A stretch of DNA of 64,000 bases, taken from contig JAUYHA010000071.1 of NCBI GenBank assembly GCA_030690265.1, forward strand, positions 3,998-67,997, written 5' to 3'. Below, piece by piece: positions 3,483 to 57,536 of this stretch; within the stretch, counting starts at the first letter, position 1; the number at the start of each line of letters is the position of its first letter. The position numbers were made by a program, and so were the translations under genes. The stretch comes from Dehalococcoidales bacterium. Lineage in GTDB: Bacteria; Chloroflexota; Dehalococcoidia; Dehalococcoidales; UBA2162. The notes below the pieces were generated by a model. That model was not told where the DNA came from. It worked only from the letters and a program-made list of their open reading frames with translations, and made no database searches.

Positions 3483-3745
3483 GGCTGTCCGAAAATGTCA
3501 TTCTGAGCACATTCGCTACGTTCACTCTGACCTCGGGACTTCGGCGTGAGCTCAGTCGAACGCTGAACTCGGTCTGAAGACGATAACCTGCTCCGAGCTT
3601 GTCGAGGCAAGTCGGAACGAGCTCAGTGTAAACTCCGCGAAGAATCTCGGGGAGTAGCGGGCATTACAAGCATACCCATCCACCGAGACCCTTCACTTCG
3701 TTCAGGGTGACACAATAATAAAGAAAGTGGTGTTTTCGGACCGCC
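3483..3745. mobile_element. MITE-like shell W1 enclosing a GTCA..TGAC palindrome with nested micro-modules
   Basis: TIR GGCTGTCCGAAAA (3483-3495) / TTTTCGGACCGCC (3733-3745); internal block shared with 11.7 and 25.2 kb. Confidence 0.75.
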
Positions 3746-3861: not shown

Positions 3862-3983
3862 TGTCATTGCGAGCCATTCGCAGAAGGCTTCAGCCTTCAG
3901 TCCGAGCCTTCAGGCCGAGGCCCGAGTTCAGCGTTCGACTGAGCTCACGCCGAAGTCCCGAGGGCTTCGCCCTCGCAATGACA
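3862..3983. repeat. GTCATTGCGAG..CTCGCAATGAC palindrome with nested modules
   Basis: Ends match the 57402-57536 copy; 3922-3963 is the exact reverse complement of 3531-3572. Confidence 0.85.
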
Positions 3984-7195: not shown

Positions 7196-7374
7196 CTAGT
7201 GTAGTGCATCTTACGCTTCGTTATTTTCGGTTAACTATACCGACGAAAGTCGGTATCCAGACGTGTAGGCTCATCCGGTATCGCCTGGATTCCGGCTGGA
7301 GTTTATCCCGTACCTGATACGGGGCCGGAATTGGGGGGGCTGTAGCTAACGTTATTTTGAAGACACTACACTAG
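7196..7374. mobile_element. MITE-like shell W3 with internal palindromes
   Basis: Perfect 11-bp TIR CTAGTGTAGTG / CACTACACTAG; contains ATACCGACGAAAGTCGGTAT and the CCCGTACCTGATACGGG module also seen at 12.05 and 14.25 kb. Confidence 0.75.
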
Positions 7375-8021: not shown

Positions 8022-9428
8022 TCAAACATTGAAGAAGATTGAAGAAGAAGGTAATCTCACTATAAATTTTGCTCCTTCACCGGGCTGGCTTTCGGCAATG
8101 ATTGTGCCACTGTGAGCCAGGGCTATTTCTCTGGCAATAGCCAGGCCGAGTCCAACCCCGGTCCTGACCCCGGTAATTTGATAAAACCTCTCAAAGACGT
8201 AGGATAGTTGTTCCGGAGGTATTCCAGGACCGCTATCGGTTACGCTAATTTCAACATAGTCACCATTTATGCTATCGGAGACCTGGACGTTGCCTCCGGA
8301 GGGGGTATTCTTGATGGCGTTGTCCAGCAGATTTCCGATTAGTTCTTCCAGGCGGCCGAATTCGCCCATTATACGCGCTTTGTTTCCGTGTTTAACCTCA
8401 AGCACGACACCCTTTTTTTGTGCTTGCAGGCTGAAAACATCGGTACAATGGCTCAAGAGTTCATGAATATCTACGGGTTCATAAGCTATTTTAATCTGGC
8501 CGGATTGCATGCGGGCAAGCTCGAGAAGCTCGTCCACCTGCCGTCTCATCCTGGTTGATTCATCATTGATAATCCTTGCCGCCTTCAACCTGGTATCTTC
8601 ATCGCTGGCGGTGCCATCTATCAGTGCCTGGGCAAACCCCTGGATTGATGTAATCGGAGTTTTCAATTCGTGAGATACGTCAGCGACGAAATGGCGTAAC
8701 TGCATCTGGGACTGCTTTACTTTATCAGCCATGTCATTAAAGTTTTTTGCCAGGTTACCGAATTCCTTTGGGCTTCTGACGGGTATTTTCTTATCGTACT
8801 CACCACGGGCAATCCTCTGGGCAGCGCTGGTTACCTCTTCCAGGGGACGGTACACAGAACGGGCGAAGAAAAAAGCCAGCACCAGCGAAATGGATAAAGC
8901 CGTCACTCCGGCAAGCAGCAACGGCCGGAAGAGACTTGCCATTATAGCCATCGATTCCGTCTGCGGGACGGCCAGGATTAGAGTATCTACCCTGGATGCC
9001 AGCGAAGTAGCTATTCTGACCAGAGGATAGGCGGCGAAAAGATATACCGTACCGCCGGAAGTCTCAAACTTGCCCTGGGTCGGCATGGTAAGATTTTGTG
9101 GAAGACCGGAAGTGACCTGTATCTGCTCGTGATTGGATGATGGTGCAATTTGCCTGGCAATGTTGCCACTGCTGTCAGTCAGGAGGATAAAGACACTATT
9201 CTTTTCTGCCTGTTCCTGGAGACTGGACCATAAGTCCCTCGCTGTTACCTGGCCCGCGACAAGCGACCTGACCTGTACCGAGATAGGACGTGCCATGCTA
9301 TCGAGGCGCTCCATTGTCAATCGGTCACGGTAACCCTGCAACAGCACGGTCATCAGCATTGCTACCAGGCCAAGACAGACAAGTACAATCAGGGTGTAGG
9401 TGGTAAACAAGCGCGTTCGGAAGCTCAT
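8022..9428 (-). CDS. HAMP sensor histidine kinase
   Basis: SHELKTP, NLLDNA, DSGPGI, GVGLGL. Confidence 0.94.
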   Translation of the reverse strand: MSFRTRLFTTYTLIVLVCLGLVAMLMTVLLQGYRDRLTMERLDSMARPISVQVRSLVAGQVTARDLWSSLQEQAEKNSVFILLTDSSGNIARQIAPSSNHEQIQVTSGLPQNLTMPTQGKFETSGGTVYLFAAYPLVRIATSLASRVDTLILAVPQTESMAIMASLFRPLLLAGVTALSISLVLAFFFARSVYRPLEEVTSAAQRIARGEYDKKIPVRSPKEFGNLAKNFNDMADKVKQSQMQLRHFVADVSHELKTPITSIQGFAQALIDGTASDEDTRLKAARIINDESTRMRRQVDELLELARMQSGQIKIAYEPVDIHELLSHCTDVFSLQAQKKGVVLEVKHGNKARIMGEFGRLEELIGNLLDNAIKNTPSGGNVQVSDSINGDYVEISVTDSGPGIPPEQLSYVFERFYQITGVRTGVGLGLAIAREIALAHSGTIIAESQPGEGAKFIVRLPSSSIFFNV

Positions 9429-10108
9429 CCGGTGCTCCTTGCCGGGGACATCTTGTAACCGGTACCACGGAATGTCTCTATGCTCACATCTGAGGCGGAG
9501 AGTTTGTCTCGCAGATTCTTAACGTGAACGTCGACAGTGCGTGTTTCGCCATAGTAATCATAACCCCAGACTATTTCCAGCAGTTTCTCCCGGCTCAATA
9601 CTATGCCGATGTTCTGAGCGAAGGCAGCCAGCAGGTCAAACTCCTTGACTCTCAATGCTACAGGTTTGCCCGCTACGGTTACTTCACGTGCCGGTAGGTC
9701 TATGCGGAGGTTACCGATTTCCATCATCTCTCGCGGCGTGGCTCCCGTTTGATACCTCCGGAGTACCGCCTTAACTCTGGCTGCCAGCTCCCTGGGATTA
9801 AACGGCTTGGTCAGGTAGTCATCGGCACCCAGCTCCAGGCCGATTATTTTATCAACATCTTCTTTGCGGGCGGTGAGCATAAGTATCGGTATGGCGCTTT
9901 TTGCTCTTATCTGACGGCACACCTCAAAACCATCGATATCCGGAAGCATCAGGTCAAGGATGATAAGGTCGGGGTTTACTGATTTTTGCTTTGAAATAGC
10001 TTCCCGGCCGTTAGCGGCGCTCTCTACTTTATAGCCGTCACGCTCGAGGTAGAGTCGGGCTAACTCGATGATATTTGATTCATCGTCCACAACAAGAATA
10101 GTCTGCAT
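9425..10108 (-). CDS. OmpR-family response regulator
   Basis: VVDDE, LDLMLP, GADDYLTKPF, RTVDVHV; overlaps the kinase start (ATGA). Confidence 0.95.
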   Translation of the reverse strand: MQTILVVDDESNIIELARLYLERDGYKVESAANGREAISKQKSVNPDLIILDLMLPDIDGFEVCRQIRAKSAIPILMLTARKEDVDKIIGLELGADDYLTKPFNPRELAARVKAVLRRYQTGATPREMMEIGNLRIDLPAREVTVAGKPVALRVKEFDLLAAFAQNIGIVLSREKLLEIVWGYDYYGETRTVDVHVKNLRDKLSASDVSIETFRGTGYKMSPARSTG

Positions 10109-10192
10109 CTCAATTCCAGAGCGAATGTTCTTGTGCCATTATACCAGAGTCCGGTCTGATTCCTACATTTTGCATCAATAGTTACTACAATT

Positions 10193-10336
10193 TGTCATTG
10201 CGAGAAGTCTTTCCTTGGAAGGACGACGAAGCAGTCCTTTCCCCCATGTCATTGCGAGGAACGCTAGTGACGAAGCAATCTAATAAAATATTCTAGAGAG
10301 TGCCACGCCCCGATGAAATCGGGGCTCGCAATGACA
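10193..10336. repeat. GTCATTGCGAG..CTCGCAATGAC palindromic repeats (two left arms, one right arm)
   Basis: Family consensus GTCATTGCGAG..CGAAGCAATC..CTCGCAATGAC. Confidence 0.85.
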
Positions 10337-10351
10337 GGATAGTTACCTGGA

Positions 10352-10404
10352 GAATTACCTGGAGGTAGATTGGATATGTTGCTTCGACTACCTCCAGGCA
10401 ATTC
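10352..10404. terminator. Long hairpin downstream of ORF 10421-11320
   Basis: GAATTACCTGGAGGTAG / CTACCTCCAGGCAATTC, 17-bp stem with one mismatch; no clear U-tract. Confidence 0.4.
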
Positions 10405-10420
10405 CCTCCTGCGACAGGTA

Positions 10421-11320
10421 TTAATGGGTGGTGCTGCTGCTGCTGCTGCTGCTGATTCCGGGTCTGGTGGCTGGTCTTGCCTGAGATTCCGGTTCGGGCT
10501 CAGGGAGAATCACGATAGGTTTCCTGGCGGGGGAGAATCCCTCCTTCCTGGTCACCAGAAGATAACCACCGGCTTTCTCAAAGGCATATTTTACCTTTCC
10601 GGCCCCGTTGGTGGTGCCGAGGAAAATACCGTAAGTATTGACGGCTTCTTCAAGAGCGGCATCAATTTCAGACTTGTCGCCGCTTTCCCTGATACTGGCT
10701 ATTCGCTCCTTCAGGGCTGCTGCGTCTTCCCGGGTAAATGCCCAGACACCGGCGTCTTTAACCGGGTCTTCGGTACCCCTCTGGAAAACAGTTATGGTTA
10801 TATTCTCATCAACCTGGGCTTTCGGCGGAGCATCTATTGCCAGAGCTGGCAAGTGCATACCGACCGCAATCGGTCTGGAGTCCGGTACGTACCCTCCTAA
10901 TATGGCTACGAGGACATAACGTCCTGAGGTCTCAAACGAATACCAGACCTTTCCTTCGCTATTAGTTCTGGCGATAAAGGTACCATGTATGCCTAACATG
11001 TTTTCGTATTCGGCAACGCTGGTATCAGGATTAGCGTTACGTTTCGCCTTTGCCATCTCCTGTCTCAGGTTCTCGGCTTCTTCTCTGGTCACCAGCCAAA
11101 CACCGGCACCCTCAACCGGCTCCTGGTCAGAGCATTGAAAAACAGTTATGGATATCTGCGTGTTGATGGGTGTTGCTAAAGGTGCGACAATAGCCAGTCC
11201 GTCACGGGGTGGGGTAGTATTTTCCTCACTATCTCCGGTCTGGGCAAACGCTGCAACCGGACTGACAATCATGCCGAGAAGTGCCACAGCAAACAGGGTT
11301 ATAATTGACCATTTTCTCAT
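10421..11320 (-). CDS. Secreted protein with two internal ~120-aa repeats
   Basis: Signal peptide (AFA-Q), AGGAGG RBS; LAI.AP..ITVFQ..PV..AGVW..TRE.A..TN..GKV.Y.FE..G.Y.LV occurs twice; Ser-rich tail. Confidence 0.85.
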   Translation of the reverse strand: MRKWSIITLFAVALLGMIVSPVAAFAQTGDSEENTTPPRDGLAIVAPLATPINTQISITVFQCSDQEPVEGAGVWLVTREEAENLRQEMAKAKRNANPDTSVAEYENMLGIHGTFIARTNSEGKVWYSFETSGRYVLVAILGGYVPDSRPIAVGMHLPALAIDAPPKAQVDENITITVFQRGTEDPVKDAGVWAFTREDAAALKERIASIRESGDKSEIDAALEEAVNTYGIFLGTTNGAGKVKYAFEKAGGYLLVTRKEGFSPARKPIVILPEPEPESQARPATRPGISSSSSSSTTH

Positions 11321-11571
11321 TTTTGTTTTACCTCCTGAATTTTTTGACTGAAGCCAGCGTCAATGACCGGGGCCCCTCAATCATTTGCTGCTAAACTTAA
11401 GTCTTATACTTATTAAAGAGTGCGATTGTTATCCCGGTTTTATCGCTGTGTAAATTCTCCGTAAAATTATTGAGCCGCAGATAACAGCTTGCTGGGGGGA
11501 GGAAAGCGGTTCGCCGCCAGGCGAAGCAAACATCAATCTTTTTTAAAGATAACAATGAATTTTCTGAAGGT

Positions 11572-12150
11572 TGACCCCATCTACTGTATCTCCTTCCCCT
11601 AAAATGAGCTTTGTATCAAAAGTGAGTTCCTCCTTGTCACCCTGAGCACATTCGCTCCGTTCACTCTGACGATAATCGGAACGAGTTCACTCTGACCTCG
11701 GTCTGAACTCGGTCTGAAGACGATAACCTGCTCCGAGCTTGTCGAGGCAAGTCGGAACGAGCTCAGTGTAAACTCAGCGAAGGGTATCGGTGTGGTGGGA
11801 ACTAGCGATTCACCACCAGCCCCACGACCAGATTCTTTGTCGCTTCACTCTGACGAATAACACGATACCGCTTCTCGTTACAGGTAATCGGAACGAGTTC
11901 GCTCCTCAGAATGACATTTGATATAAGACCCCTAACATGGGAAGGGGAAGAAAAGGAAAGGCTGTCCGAAAACAAGGAATCCCTTATTTGTCATTCCGTG
12001 CTTGACACGGAATCCAGAAGTGGTGATGAGGTAGTCTGGATTCTGGCTCCCGTATCAGGTACGGGACAGGCTTCGCCAGAATGACATTTTCGAACAACCT
12101 TAAAACATTTCCCCTTCTCCCGTGGGAGAGGGGGATAAAGGGGGTGAGGG
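11572..12150. mobile_element. Multi-level nested repeat locus (A element containing shells W2 and W1, palindromes and micro-modules)
   Basis: W2 11606-11931, W1 11960-12099, flanked by A and A' arms. Confidence 0.8.
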
Positions 12151-12324
12151 CAAAGGGTGCAGGGAGCGCATGAAAAAGTATTGACTGAGGCTGGGCGGTA
12201 CGTAAGCCCCCCAGCTTGCTGGGGGCACGTTACTTGGGGTAGAAAGAGCGCAGAGGTTAGATTGCCGTTTGATGCTTTTAGGGGTATTATGGGTACGGAA
12301 GAATCGGAATCCGGGGGAAGGCTT

Positions 12325-12471
12325 TTGTTAAAGGAATTCGTGTTTTATTCAGTTGCCGCCGGTGTTATTGGTTTGATAGCCCAGCTTGCCGGGGCTAGCC
12401 TTCCCGTAATTCTGTTTTCGTCTTTGCTGGTCCCTCCTGTTTTCCTGCTTATAGTCAGAATTCTCCGCTAA
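12325..12471 (+). CDS. Small two-TM membrane protein (48 aa)
   Basis: 3' part of ORF 12157; TTG start after GGGGGAAGG; upstream TTGCCG-N17-TATTAT; hydrophobic. Confidence 0.5.
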   Translation: MLKEFVFYSVAAGVIGLIAQLAGASLPVILFSSLLVPPVFLLIVRILR

Positions 12472-12591
12472 GGCTTGATAGACGGCTTTTCCCTTGCTAA
12501 AAAGGAATGCGGGTAATCCCGGCCTGGAAAACAGGAAAGAGCGAACACGGGGTGAGCTTTTAGGCAGGATGCGGGGAAGTACTGCCCAGGA

Positions 12592-14199
12592 TTATCGGTG
12601 AACTTGAGCTTTGCTGAAAACGCTTCTTATTTCAGGGTGGAGGTTGCCTAATTCGGCGACAGCTTCATACCTGATTTTATCAATTTCCCTTTGTTTTTCT
12701 TCAAATTCACCGTTGGAATAAAGCTTTTCCGGGTGCATACAGATGTCATCAACAACCCTGATTGCTGCCGGCACCTGAAAGCCGGTAGGAGAATCCACCC
12801 AGTCTTCAAGCCCGCCTCTCACTAAAGAATCCAGTATTCCCATGGTGGCTTCTAACCGTATATCTTTGTGACGCTCTCCCTCACCGACCCCTCCGGTATT
12901 TAGCAGGTAAAAATTTAAGTGGGGAATGCCTTTTATTATTTCATAGAAAATATTGGCGTGTTCGGTTAAATCACCGGCGACAAAGGGGTCATAGAAAAAT
13001 TCGCTCCGAATCGTTCCAGCCCTGGTCGGGTCTCCGGCGGAGGACTCCATTGCCTGCCCCAGCACCATCAGGGCTGCCGCCTGTTCCCTGGTTAGTTTTG
13101 ATATTGCCGGAATTATCGGTCCTCTGGTGATGAGAACCAGGTTATCCACCCTGTCCACACAAATATGGGGGCTGGCGTGCATAAAAGCTTTTCTAAGGAT
13201 GACGGCTCTGCCATTTGAGGTTCTCTGGAAATCGTAAAAATCAAGGTCCCCATCGTCATCTACGCAAACATTTTCCAGCACGGTTTCCGGTTTTAACAGA
13301 CCGTAATATATTTCGAGCTGTTCTCCTGGATTGACACCTTCTGTTTTGGCAAATATCCCACCTGCCTCAAAGCCGCAAAAAGAGCCATCGGGCATAAGAG
13401 TACCCCCATCATCCTGGACAAGCCAGGACTTTTCCTTTCCCTTTCTAGCCAGTATCCGGCTGGTAGTGGTTGTTTTGCCGTTGGCGCTTAAGGCAATCAG
13501 CAATGTTCTCACCGTACGGTAGTCTCCGTGGATTGACTGAAGATAGTCTTCTCTACAGCCGGCGTGCAGGAAAATGCTGCCCTTTCTCGTCTTGGCCACC
13601 CAGTCTTCGGCGGCGAAGATGCCTTTCTTATACTCACCTATGTAGTTGCCGTTCCTGATTATCTTGACAAATCTTCCGTCAGGCAGCATAGCCAGTCTTA
13701 TGGTGATATCTTTATCAGGAAGTGCCTTGTTTTGGTTGGTTTTAAAGGCTTCATCAGCGAAAAATAAGATTTGATAAGTTGGCTCTTCAATTTTTTTCTT
13801 AACCGGTATAAAAAGATTACCCCCGCCGTAGGCAACATGGGCAAACCGCTCGGGAACGATAAGCCTTACTGTCGTGTCACTGCTCTCATTACCCACAATC
13901 CGGTCAATTGAAATCAGCCTCTCTTTAGCCAGAGCTTCTTCACACTGAGCCAGCAGCTCTATCTCTTCCTGACCAAAGGGGTGGTCGACGCTGTTCCTGG
14001 TGAACATGGCGGACCGGGAGGTAGGCTCACTTTCCGCCACAAAATTGCCATACATTGTTTTCCTGACCCCGGGCTGTTTTTCCACGAGGTCTCTCAGAAC
14101 TTCATCAGAGGGGTTATCTTTTAATCTACCTTCCTCTATTGCCTTTGCTCTGATGCTGTCAGCCGTCTGAACGAACCGTTCCAGATTAAATTCTGCCAT
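12592..14199 (-). CDS. pckA: Phosphoenolpyruvate carboxykinase (ATP), divergent
   Basis: NYIGEYKKG, FLHAG, LSANGKTTT, QDD, FEAGGIFAKT, VLENV, SNGRA, LLNTG. Confidence 0.82.
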   Translation of the reverse strand: MAEFNLERFVQTADSIRAKAIEEGRLKDNPSDEVLRDLVEKQPGVRKTMYGNFVAESEPTSRSAMFTRNSVDHPFGQEEIELLAQCEEALAKERLISIDRIVGNESSDTTVRLIVPERFAHVAYGGGNLFIPVKKKIEEPTYQILFFADEAFKTNQNKALPDKDITIRLAMLPDGRFVKIIRNGNYIGEYKKGIFAAEDWVAKTRKGSIFLHAGCREDYLQSIHGDYRTVRTLLIALSANGKTTTTSRILARKGKEKSWLVQDDGGTLMPDGSFCGFEAGGIFAKTEGVNPGEQLEIYYGLLKPETVLENVCVDDDGDLDFYDFQRTSNGRAVILRKAFMHASPHICVDRVDNLVLITRGPIIPAISKLTREQAAALMVLGQAMESSAGDPTRAGTIRSEFFYDPFVAGDLTEHANIFYEIIKGIPHLNFYLLNTGGVGEGERHKDIRLEATMGILDSLVRGGLEDWVDSPTGFQVPAAIRVVDDICMHPEKLYSNGEFEEKQREIDKIRYEAVAELGNLHPEIRSVFSKAQVHR

Positions 14200-14230
14200 T
14201 TTCCCCCTCCGTCCTTAGTTTTTGGTTTCA

Positions 14231-14347
14231 CGTCATTCTGGCGAAGCCTGTCCCGTACCTGATACGGGAGCCAGAATCCAGCCGTCACCCAACCCCTGGA
14301 TTCCAGCCAGAGTTTATCCCGTACTGGGATACGGGGCTGGAATGACA
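14231..14347. repeat. CGTCATTC..GAATGAC palindromic repeat with nested modules
   Basis: 14232-14281 is the exact reverse complement of 12036-12085. Confidence 0.85.
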
Positions 14348-14500
14348 GTTGTAAATATAGCCTGGGTTATTCAAGCTATTTCTAAAGCACCATATTAAGA
14401 TTATAGCATTATTTTATCTGGTTAATCTGTGCTACAATTACAATAATCTAACATTTTTTAGCTGTGGCTGAGTTCCGGTTTAAAAAATACGCAGGTTGTA

Positions 14501-21456: not shown

Positions 21457-21546
21457 TGTCGTTGCGAGGAACGTTAATGACGAAGCAATCTATATGAATA
21501 ATTTATAGAGATTGCCACGTCCTTCTGAGAAGGACTCGCAATGACA
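21457..21546. repeat. GTC.TTGCGAG..CTCGCAATGAC palindrome (un-nested form)
   Basis: Family consensus, AT-rich spacer. Confidence 0.85.
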
Positions 21547-24808: not shown

Positions 24809-24900
24809 TGGCGGAGGGGGAGGGATTCGAACCCTCGACCCCAGTTACCTGGGGTAAGCACTTAGCAGGCGCCCGCACTAGACCACTATGCGACCCCTCC
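24809..24900 (-). tRNA. tRNA-Ser(GCT)
   Basis: GGAGGGG acceptor stem, anticodon loop CT-GCT-AA, long variable arm, GTTCGAATC, encoded CCA. Confidence 0.95.
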
Positions 24901-24941: not shown

Positions 24942-25463
24942 CAACCCCTCCCCCTGTCCCCTTCCCCTGATAAGGGAAGGGGGAAATATAAAAAAAGAGA
25001 AGGGCGAAACCTCTCTCAAACACCCCTAAGATTAGGAAATATCAGGGATGTTTAAGAAAGGTGGAACCCTTCTTTCCAAAACCTCTTCCCCCTCTCCTTT
25101 CTAAGGGTCTGTATCAAAAGTGGTTTTTGCCTGTCACCCTGAGCATATTCGCTCCGTTCACTCTGACGATAATCGGAACGAGTTCACTCTGACCTCGGTC
25201 TGAACTCGGTCTGAAGACGATAACCTGCTCCGAGCTTGTCGAGGCAAGTCGGAACGAGCTCAGTGTAAACTCAGCGAAGGGTCTAAGTGTGGCGGGGACT
25301 AGCGATTCACCACCAGCCCCACGCCCAGATTCTTCGTCGCTTCGCTCCTTAGAATGACATTTGATACAAGACCCTCTTTTAAGGAGAGGGGTTCATCCTG
25401 AAGGGTTCAGCCCGAGTTCACCCCGAGGGGTTCACCCTGAAGGGGATAAAGGGGGTGAGGTTA
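24942..25463. mobile_element. Multi-level nested repeat locus (A-B-B-A' with W2 shell and micro-modules)
   Basis: W2 GGGTCTGTATCAAA (25105) .. TTTGATACAAGACCC (25374) sits in the loop of A'; near-copy of 11606-11931. Confidence 0.8.
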
Positions 25464-30004: not shown

Positions 30005-30188
30005 TGTCATTGCGAGGGTTCGCAAGAACCTGTGGCAATCTATAAGATTTAGTGAGATTGCTTCGCGGAGCCTGTCCTGAGCGCTATGAGATTCTTCGCT
30101 ACGCTCAGAATGACACGAAGCGAAGGGTTCACCTTGAAGGGTTCAGCCCGAGTTCACCCCGAGGGGTTCTCCCTGAAGGGCTCGCAAT
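30005..30188. repeat. GTCATTGCGAG palindrome with nested modules
   Basis: Contains GAGATTCTTCGCTACGCTCAGAATGACA half-element and the TTCACC.TGAAGGG composite. Confidence 0.85.
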
Positions 30189-41702: not shown

Positions 41703-41786
41703 TGTCATTGCCAGGAGGCATAAGCCTCCGTGGCAATCTTAAAAATCTTAGAGATTGCTTTGTCGCTAACGCTCCTCGCAGTGACA
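41703..41786. repeat. GTCATTGC..GCAGTGAC palindrome
   Basis: Family consensus. Confidence 0.8.
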
Positions 41787-57401: not shown

Positions 57402-57536
57402 TGTCATTGCGAGCCATTCGTAGAAGGCGAAGCAATCTATATGAATTAATCCATCCAGATTGCCACGTCGTCCTTCCAGGGAAGGACTCCTCGCAATGAC
57501 AGGTGAACTTCTACGGGCTTTGCCCTCGCAATGACA
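57402..57536. repeat. GTCATTGCGAG palindrome with two right arms
   Basis: CTCGCAATGACA occurs twice; ends match 3862-3983. Confidence 0.85.

Follow-up and report, generated by a model that had tools for sequence, protein, structure and literature searches.

How does a sequence of 26 nucleotides (nt) come to occur, in copies of the same longer repeat, both in plain form and expanded by precisely placed inserts? The question is raised by a 64,000-nt stretch of DNA from a Dehalococcoidales bacterium (assembly GCA_030690265.1, contig JAUYHA010000071.1, positions 3,998 to 67,997, forward strand; hereafter the window), in which such a sequence, here called X, lies within intergenic repeats. Having examined the window, the genome to which it belongs (2.44 Mb, 196 contigs, 91.7% complete) and other genomes, we regard X as probably one of a group of dispersed, non-autonomous units of 24–27 nt that are pasted into their sites and sometimes precisely removed from them. 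Each unit consists of a fixed left arm (L, the first 11 nt), a fixed right arm (R, the last 10 nt) and a free centre of 3–6 nt.

The exact plain form of X occurs twice in the window (11660–11685 and 25157–25182), and a search at up to 3 mismatches returned the same two copies (0.00 expected from 100 shuffles). An original prediction, made from the letters of this stretch, had described X, two expanded forms and an apparently empty site; all its strings and coordinates were found to be correct when the sequence was read again. The units and the host repeat elements that carry them are the following.

11635..11916, forward strand: host repeat element, copy A, with ends TGTCACCCTGAG and CTCAGAATGACA and three X-type units inside.
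11660..11685, forward strand: plain X, 26 nt, formed by L (TTCACTCTGAC), the centre GATAA and R (TCGGAACGAG).
11686..11761, forward strand: composite X unit of 76 nt (L, M1, GATAA, M2, R), abutting the plain X.
11697..11721, forward strand: M1, the first insert of the original prediction (CTCGGTCTGAACTCGGTCTGAAGAC), a low-complexity CTCGG/TCTGAA tract with an 11-nt periodicity.
11727..11751, forward strand: M2, the second insert (CCTGCTCCGAGCTTGTCGAGGCAAG), X-like, with 11 + 4 + 10 nt and the core GAGCTTGTCGA.
11844..11897, forward strand: third X-type unit, 54 nt (L, GAATAA, a 27-nt insert, R), at the site GTCGC^TTCGCTC.
11861..11887, forward strand: insert of the third unit, which holds CTCGTT (complement of the end of R) and whose terminal TAA repeats the TAA preceding it.
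25132..25359, forward strand: host repeat element, copy B, 92% identical to copy A across 237 nt.
25157..25182, forward strand: plain X in copy B, 26 nt.
25183..25258, forward strand: composite X unit in copy B, 76 nt, identical in make-up to 11686–11761.
25336..25347, forward strand: unoccupied site GTCGC/TTCGCTC, with its junction at 25340/25341.
3496..3712, forward strand: host repeat element, copy C, with ends TGTCATTCTGAG and CAGGGTGACA.
3521..3621, forward strand: composite X unit in copy C, 101 nt (L, a 50-nt M1 variant, GATAA, M2, R).

In the 76-nt composites, L and R enclose 55 nt, made up of the 25-nt M1, GATAA and the 25-nt M2. Copy C has no plain X beside its 101-nt unit; the junction TTCGGCG^TGAGCTC in the M1 variant of this unit is vacant, and a 24-nt X lies there in seven other copies in the genome. 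The third X-type unit is located near the right end of copy A. It had been read as X with a 28-nt insert, and a 27-nt unit with a 27-nt insert (11861–11887, with TAA repeated) fits equally well, because 27-nt units with the centre GAATAA fill the same site in two paralogues. At the corresponding position of copy B, GTCGC/TTCGCTCC runs without interruption across 25340/25341. All three loci of the window sit in longer repeats that have TGTCAyyCTGAG and its complement as their ends, a terminal motif found 227 times in the genome, against 22 times in a reversed-sequence control. The intergenic repeat family with the ends TGTCATTGCGAG, TGTCATTCTGAG or TGTCACCCTGAG represents the hosts that carry X, and further members lie in the window at 10247–10300, 21457–21510, 30005–30051, 41703–41749 and 57402–57448, as well as elsewhere. 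A module of about 40 nt (CTCGGGACTTCGGCGTGAGCTCAGTCGAACGCTGAACTCGG) in the 101-nt unit (3532–3572) recurs in reverse complement 350 nt downstream, at 3910–3955, in a different host repeat; modules are thus common to element types and occur in both orientations.

Throughout the genome we found 91 units with exact L and R, namely 76 outer units (24–179 nt) and 15 inner ones, all of 24 nt and nested in other units. The simple units (n = 53) measure 24 nt in 28 cases (the 15 inner units included), 26 nt in 22 and 27 nt in 3, the plain X at 11660..11685 being one of the 22 outer 26-nt units; their centres are GATAA (20), ATA (17), TTA (10), GAATAA (2) and four singletons. L and R are never separated by more than about 180 nt, orphan arms are few and confined to contig ends, and the genome-wide arm search revealed no open reading frame (ORF) or gene between any L...R pair. 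Units occur in tandem runs of up to four, and they interrupt other short repeat modules at recurrent junctions (CGCTACG^CTCAGTG, GAGCTTG^TCGAGG, TTCGGCG^TGAGCTC, GTCGC^TTCGCTC and CACGCT^TCGCTCGCAATGACA). The same composite types, such as L-M1-GATAA-M3-M2 with a 24-nt X inside M2, recur in two to six different flank contexts, always delimited by the first base of L and the last base of R. In eight paralogues of the host element of the window's copies nearly every combination of modules is present, with invariant arms and a host sequence that is 76–93% identical. Within this genome, 12-mers present at least eight times cover 2.44% of the sequence.

The boundaries of the units are sharp. Simple units stand in 27 flank contexts, and for 15 of these the exact vacant 18-mer exists elsewhere in the genome. 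When the boundaries were shifted as a control, vacant counterparts numbered 15, 15 and 13 at −1, 0 and +1 nt and dropped to 4–8 at larger shifts; unit boundaries are therefore precise to within 1 nt, and the proposal that discrete units of about 25 nt are precisely present or absent is upheld. Nor is X restricted to the contexts from which it was described, since across all sources it has 192 distinct flank contexts. Flank bases are not duplicated in 168 of them, duplication being rarer than in shuffled flank pairs, and microhomology of at least 3 nt between the flank and the start of X is present in 10 of the 164 non-tandem contexts. The 3-nt duplication or microhomology that had been proposed is not supported; a single base is enriched, a T at the first position 3′ of the unit (+1; T in 69% and C in 24%, together 93% of contexts). 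On the 5′ side C is rare (8%), and there is no conserved target of 4–5 nt. When X was removed in silico, the junction often seemed to lie at the edge of a predicted hairpin loop.

In order to follow X beyond this genome, we scanned one genome per species for exact arms with a centre of 3–6 nt, and took the phyla from the titles of the metagenome-assembled genomes (MAGs). The scan yielded 67 stretches in 18 MAGs which, by title, represent six phyla (Chloroflexi/Chloroflexota/Dehalococcoidales, Zixibacteria, WOR-3, Ignavibacteria, Verrucomicrobiota and Stahlbacteria); the Zixibacteria X is on a contig of 2.1 Mb and the Ignavibacteria ones are on contigs of 0.5 and 1.4 Mb. Units with exact arms are also present in at least 120 stretches of metagenome contigs and in one stretch of viral contigs. 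Closer to the window's genome, the 26-nt X was found at up to 2 mismatches in 3 of 41 genomes (its own and 40 relatives), the other two being other genera of the same family. Among the matches listed for 300 genomes sampled from the same class, all those outside the window's genome had 3 mismatches; the reversed control matched 8 genomes in that scan, and these matches are therefore at chance level. X is thus patchy within its class and yet crosses phyla with identical arms, which argues for horizontal spread together with constraint on the arms. Other MAGs also contain self-nested forms (L-GA[X26]TAA-R and L-GTA[X24]R), and there are partial copies with an extra R or an extra L.

Two of these loci have features of their own. 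The unit of the viral contig (L090, 167–192, reverse strand) has 26 nt, the centre GAGAA and TGA on both sides; it fits exactly into the gap between two successive small phage genes, after the stop codon of the first and before the ribosome-binding site of the second. On the Zixibacteria contig (L032, 2385–2500), the R arm pairs with an upstream near-complement, CTTGTTCCGA, within the inverted repeat GTAGCGG...CCGCTAC, and a Y1_Tnp gene is located 2.4 kb from X.

In WOR-3 MAGs, the 24-nt form is found within ORFs, in sense orientation, where it is read as xHSDxSERx. Among all fetched loci, seven ORFs with Pfam domains carry a 24-nt or 27-nt unit in the same sense frame (NAD-dependent DNA ligase, Mur ligase, trigger factor, LexA, PD40 peptidase, Fe-S protein and the GHMP kinase IspE), as does one ORF without a Pfam match; the 26-nt form, the commonest, was seen in none of them. 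These units are evidently translated, and frameshifting forms evidently purged. For ispE, 24 of 26 genomes were matched, 14 loci fetched and 9 aligned, and the 8 residues are missing in all 9 aligned relatives, the nearest of which is an 81% identical protein; at the DNA level there is a net gain of 24 nt, and 12 nt that overlap the end of X occur a second time 10 nt further downstream. In the gene of the Fe-S protein, a block of 51 nt is missing in 11 of 11 aligned relatives. This block is a 27-nt unit (TTCACCACGACCTT...CACCACGGAGTAA) with a 24-nt X in its centre, and its flanks align cleanly with zero duplicated bases. Together with the nested copies, such additions to unique sequence in other genomes indicate that the insertion and nesting of small units, as originally proposed, are real.

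The 27-nt unit of the Fe-S gene has the same TTCAC...GAG layout as X (L220, identical to L064, 5370–6407, reverse strand, in a WOR-3 MAG). With a central 24-nt X it is found in several WOR-3 genes and intergenic sites, and is read as GSPRP...PRS. At the X site of another locus (L038), ARAGORN found no tRNA gene.

The inserts are of several kinds. At one and the same position, M1 variants in the genome measure 25, 36, 50, 52 and 63 nt, with steps of 11 nt; M1 is a slippage-prone tract, and its variation looks like slippage rather than ruler-type insertion. M2 shares 11 of 21 positions with the arms of X, and nine of the differences are transitions and one a transversion (0 of 20000 shuffles match). 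On this alignment M2 is itself an X-like unit sitting in the centre of X. Its core, GAGCYTGTCGA, occurs 38 times in the genome and 0 times in the control, with 22 of the 38 being M2, which is located solely between the centre and R of an X unit. Of the M2 copies, 21 are intact and 13 (12 and one variant) are interrupted at CTTG^TCGA by a 24-nt X; the same site is filled by X in Zixibacteria, Ignavibacteria and other Chloroflexota MAGs. M3-type inserts, such as that at 11861–11887, hold the complement of R and pair with R in the fold. The size range of 24–27 nt is genuine for four distinct module types. It goes back to a few fixed sequences, and the ruler that had been suggested finds no support, as the first insert varies in 11-nt steps and the second is X-like.

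These data suggest how the mosaics of the window could have formed. The favoured landing places of X are the centres of other small repeat units, X included, usually just before the 3′ arm, and this preference gives rise to nesting, tandem arrays and mosaics. In the model that we propose, an L...R unit would be copied and pasted, and also precisely lost, through a trans-acting factor that recognises the arms. Insertion would probably use DNA that is transiently single-stranded, where the loop and stem of hairpin-type repeats meet; composites would then travel along with the host repeats and also spread through recombination among paralogues. The two 26-nt, two 76-nt, 54-nt and 101-nt units of the window would be products of this process. 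A more far-reaching reading is that no mobile DNA smaller than the L–R units has yet been seen outside cyanobacteria, and that they move by a novel paste mechanism that makes no target duplication, operates in at least six phyla, favours the centres of micro-repeats and builds recursive mosaics; such units would enter essential genes in frame (ispE, ligA, a Mur ligase gene, lexA, trigger factor), take along some 150 nt of cargo between their ends and be precisely removable. Taken as a whole, this set of claims is tentative, and we would sooner bet against it than for it.

Several observations, in this and the later paragraphs on folding and enzymes, weigh against the view that X is a pasted unit. 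In ispE, the nearest relative differs as well in the 15–17 nt that follow X on its right, and the exact event there is therefore not reconstructable. Centre variants are bound to their contexts (ATA in 7 of 7 units at one site, GAATAA at one site only), and thus most copies in the window's genome were inherited with their surroundings; independent insertions in this genome may number just 10–27 or so. Polymorphism at the orthologous locus within a population was not demonstrable from the 3 DNA sequencing runs found to contain the region, and no RNA run was among those listed. When contigs from these runs are placed on 9000–14500, some joints bypass the two abutting X units (11656>11761/2) and the third one (11843>11898, 54 nt); none of the listed contigs bridges 11663–11756, and they break at repeats, which leaves paralogue and allele indistinguishable.

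The vacancy at 25341 belongs with these observations. In the host subfamily, GTCGC^TTCGCTC is filled in 4 of 6 paralogues, across both sequence clades, and always with the rare centre GAATAA, which indicates a single origin of the filling. The nearest paralogue of each of the two unoccupied copies is a filled copy (91% and 93%). A single gain with two precise losses or conversions is the more parsimonious course of events. The site at 25341, presented at first as empty, is thus probably not an untouched target but the result of a precise secondary loss or conversion; parsimony over the paralogues reverses the polarity. The near-repeat TTCACTC/TTCGCTC around the unit could mediate such a loss.

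Loss of this kind is at home in the main rival explanation, in which X has no dedicated mobility and is a module of intergenic hairpin repeats, its mosaics being produced by slippage, template switching and gene conversion. The 11-nt steps of M1, the inverted copy of R in M3-type inserts, the partial copies with an extra R or L, the context-specific centres and the fit of the 25341 loss to slippage between TTCACTC and TTCGCTC all agree with it. Recombination does not explain how the same 24-nt unit, with the same ends, comes to lie in unique coding sequence of unrelated genes and phyla without homologous flanks, and most junctions share 0–1 nt of microhomology, which does not suffice for slippage or conversion to reach a new context. 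It accounts for M1, partial copies and local loss, but not for the clean insertions into unique genes, and we consider it unlikely as the whole explanation. Deletion from one long ancestral repeat, which would turn all variants into remnants, gains something from the vacant 25341 and one other paralogue, both best read as losses, and from the longest composites, which hold all modules. It is already contradicted by the 192 distinct flank contexts, by minimal 24-nt units standing alone in unique sequence of other phyla, by insertions missing from all aligned orthologues and by the splitting of M2 at a site that is intact 21 times, and is hardly tenable.

The predicted folds offer little to a pasted unit that would be structured. 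X was expected to be a hairpin, and this was rejected: alone it folds no better than shuffles, either as DNA (−1.1 kcal/mol, z +0.25; not a significantly stable hairpin) or as RNA (−3.7 kcal/mol, z −0.95), and the 76-nt unit does no better (z −0.99 and +0.27). The parts of our proposal that concern a loop target and a structured element are therefore weakly founded. As the arms are invariant, covariation is not measurable for the RNA fold, and the sole fold of X needs G-U pairs on the forward strand. Host element A, with its edges (11630–11922), folds well as DNA, at −50.1 kcal/mol (z −2.9), which is not true of element B (z −1.08). In a predicted fold, CTCGTT of the 11861..11887 insert pairs with AACGAG. 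Orientation likewise shows no bias, neither relative to flanking ORFs in tandem gene pairs (9 same, 15 opposite) nor relative to GC skew (23 against 32). As to placement, 17 of the 55 X-bearing loci are flanked by divergent ORF pairs and only 6 by convergent ones, the opposite of the usual placement of REP-type repeats.

Fold and orientation bear directly on an RNA-mediated route, in which X would be copied from a transcript, or inserted in RNA and then fixed by reverse transcription. RNA-mediated spread has reportedly been proposed for the small dispersed repeats of cyanobacteria. The sense orientation and single frame of X in 7 of 7 Pfam-domain ORFs and in the ORF without a Pfam match, the G-U pairs of the forward strand in its sole fold and the three reverse transcriptases of the window's genome would suit this route. 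The sense-frame bias is equally explained by selection for a hydrophilic peptide, since genes are without 26-nt forms; moreover, the RNA fold is not significant, intergenic X points the same way as the flanking ORFs in 9 cases and the other way in 15, and RVT_1 is present in just 1 of 5 X-bearing genomes. We hold an RNA-mediated origin to be improbable. The three reverse transcriptase genes are as follows.

C175:42231–42809: reverse transcriptase, retron type II-A (St85-like).
C187:22525–23124: reverse transcriptase, group-II/CRISPR-associated-like.
C100:17268–17795: reverse transcriptase, UG21-like defence type.

All three look like defence or retron types. More generally, a further point against a dedicated pasting activity is that no enzyme is common to all X-bearing genomes among those sought (Y1_Tnp, RVT_1, IS110 and the TnpB-type domain): of five X-bearing genomes, one has IS110, as with RVT_1, and none has the TnpB-type domain. 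Y1_Tnp was detected in 7 of 10 X-bearing genomes, but not in the three richest, with 0 matches in the window's genome (91.7% complete) and none in two other X-rich MAGs.

The latter enzyme is central to the possibility that X is a REP/REPIN-type element moved by a RAYT, a Y1 HUH transposase. Single-strand HUH transposition typically leaves no target duplication and permits precise loss, as seen for X; Y1_Tnp is present in 7 of the 10 genomes, and X lies 1.8–2.4 kb from a Y1 gene in two of them. X further resembles REP, BIME and REPIN elements in being short, mostly intergenic and highly repeated, in forming mosaics of few motif types and in lacking a target duplication. These likenesses do not extend to the enzyme. 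A cognate repeat-flanked Y1 (RAYT) gene was not found, the richest genomes being without RAYT; the one Y1 gene whose flanking sequence was read (L048, 1.8 kb from X) lies between GTAG-tagged inverted repeats of its own, and the Y1 loci contain no X arms. According to one account (PMC3733652), one end of REP elements bears a conserved tag, GTAG or CGTC. X, which begins with TTCA and finishes with CGAG, has no such tag and no stable stem-loop palindrome, and shows no conserved 4–5 nt target 5′ of the insertion; its units nest in one another, whereas REPs alternate in orientation. A RAYT-driven origin is accordingly very improbable.

Some neighbouring features of the window are recorded here. Another repeat type (GTCATTCCGTGCTTGACACGGAATCCAG..., CCTGGATTCCGGCTGGAGTTTATCCCGTAC) is present at 12000–12100, 14250–14330 and 7284–7313. 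Its summed contig depth bins reach up to 895, against about 3–13 at the flanks, in groundwater and soil metagenome runs, and it is therefore common to many organisms in those samples. Some 230 nt upstream of host copy B there is a tRNA gene (24812–24900, reverse strand, Rfam 52.8 bits), with further short palindromic repeats in between. At the gathering threshold, Rfam gave nothing but this tRNA, and at E ≤ 1 on 11500–12200 one chance miRNA match only; blastn of 11626–11931 against plasmids and phages returned no match.

Among known systems, the closest kind is that of the small dispersed repeats (SDR1–8) of heterocyst-forming cyanobacteria, to which X is likened by description. SDRs are said to measure 21–27 nt, to exist in many dispersed copies and to sit within their own copies, within short tandem repeats and within miniature transposon-like repeats; SDR4–6 reportedly have a conserved secondary structure backed by compensatory changes. 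We know of no enzyme that has been assigned to them. X is of like size (24–27 nt), is dispersed over 27 contexts in the genome and 192 across sources, other repeats included, and is nested in itself, with 15 inner units here and nested forms in other MAGs. Unlike SDRs, it occurs in Chloroflexota, Zixibacteria, WOR-3, Ignavibacteria, Verrucomicrobiota and Stahlbacteria MAGs rather than in cyanobacteria; its arms stay identical from phylum to phylum, its predicted hairpin is not significantly supported, up to about 150 nt of cargo can lie between the arms, and it stands in frame in housekeeping genes.

Rickettsia palindromic elements, which are palindromic, about 100–150 bp long and confined to one genus, also lie in frame in protein-coding genes. 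X resembles them as a selfish repeat that is tolerated in genes as an extra peptide segment, and differs in its 24–27 nt and its spread across phyla. Miniature inverted-repeat transposable elements (MITEs), which have terminal inverted repeats and target-site duplications, are 5–20 times longer than X. Like MITEs, X is non-autonomous, without a coding region, dispersed and sometimes nested. Unlike them, it makes no target duplication of fixed length (168 of 192 contexts are without any), its ends are poor inverted repeats (L agrees with the complement of R at 6 of 10 positions), and no gene-bearing long L...R unit was found. A review (PMC2229807) describes small repeats as present in intergenic and intragenic regions alike. 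In sum, X shares the size, dispersal and self-nesting that define SDRs, and has the hallmarks of neither REP/RAYT elements nor MITEs.

To our knowledge, very small dispersed repeats have been reported once, in 2008, in one cyanobacterial group. Literature searches for small-repeat reports and for X motifs brought up neither X itself nor anything comparable in other phyla. The X unit looks to be among the smallest mobile DNA elements known, and X would represent a second, independent system of very small repeats, with sharp ends and with identical arms in distant phyla. In practical terms, X units add 8–17 residues to annotated proteins, break assemblies at repeats and create spurious ORFs in metagenome-assembled genomes. 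The clean insertions of X in conserved genes make the ancestral state readable from orthologues and, with the sharp ends and shared arms, render testable how ends are recognised, whether the step takes place on single-stranded DNA or RNA, and how so tiny a unit may move.

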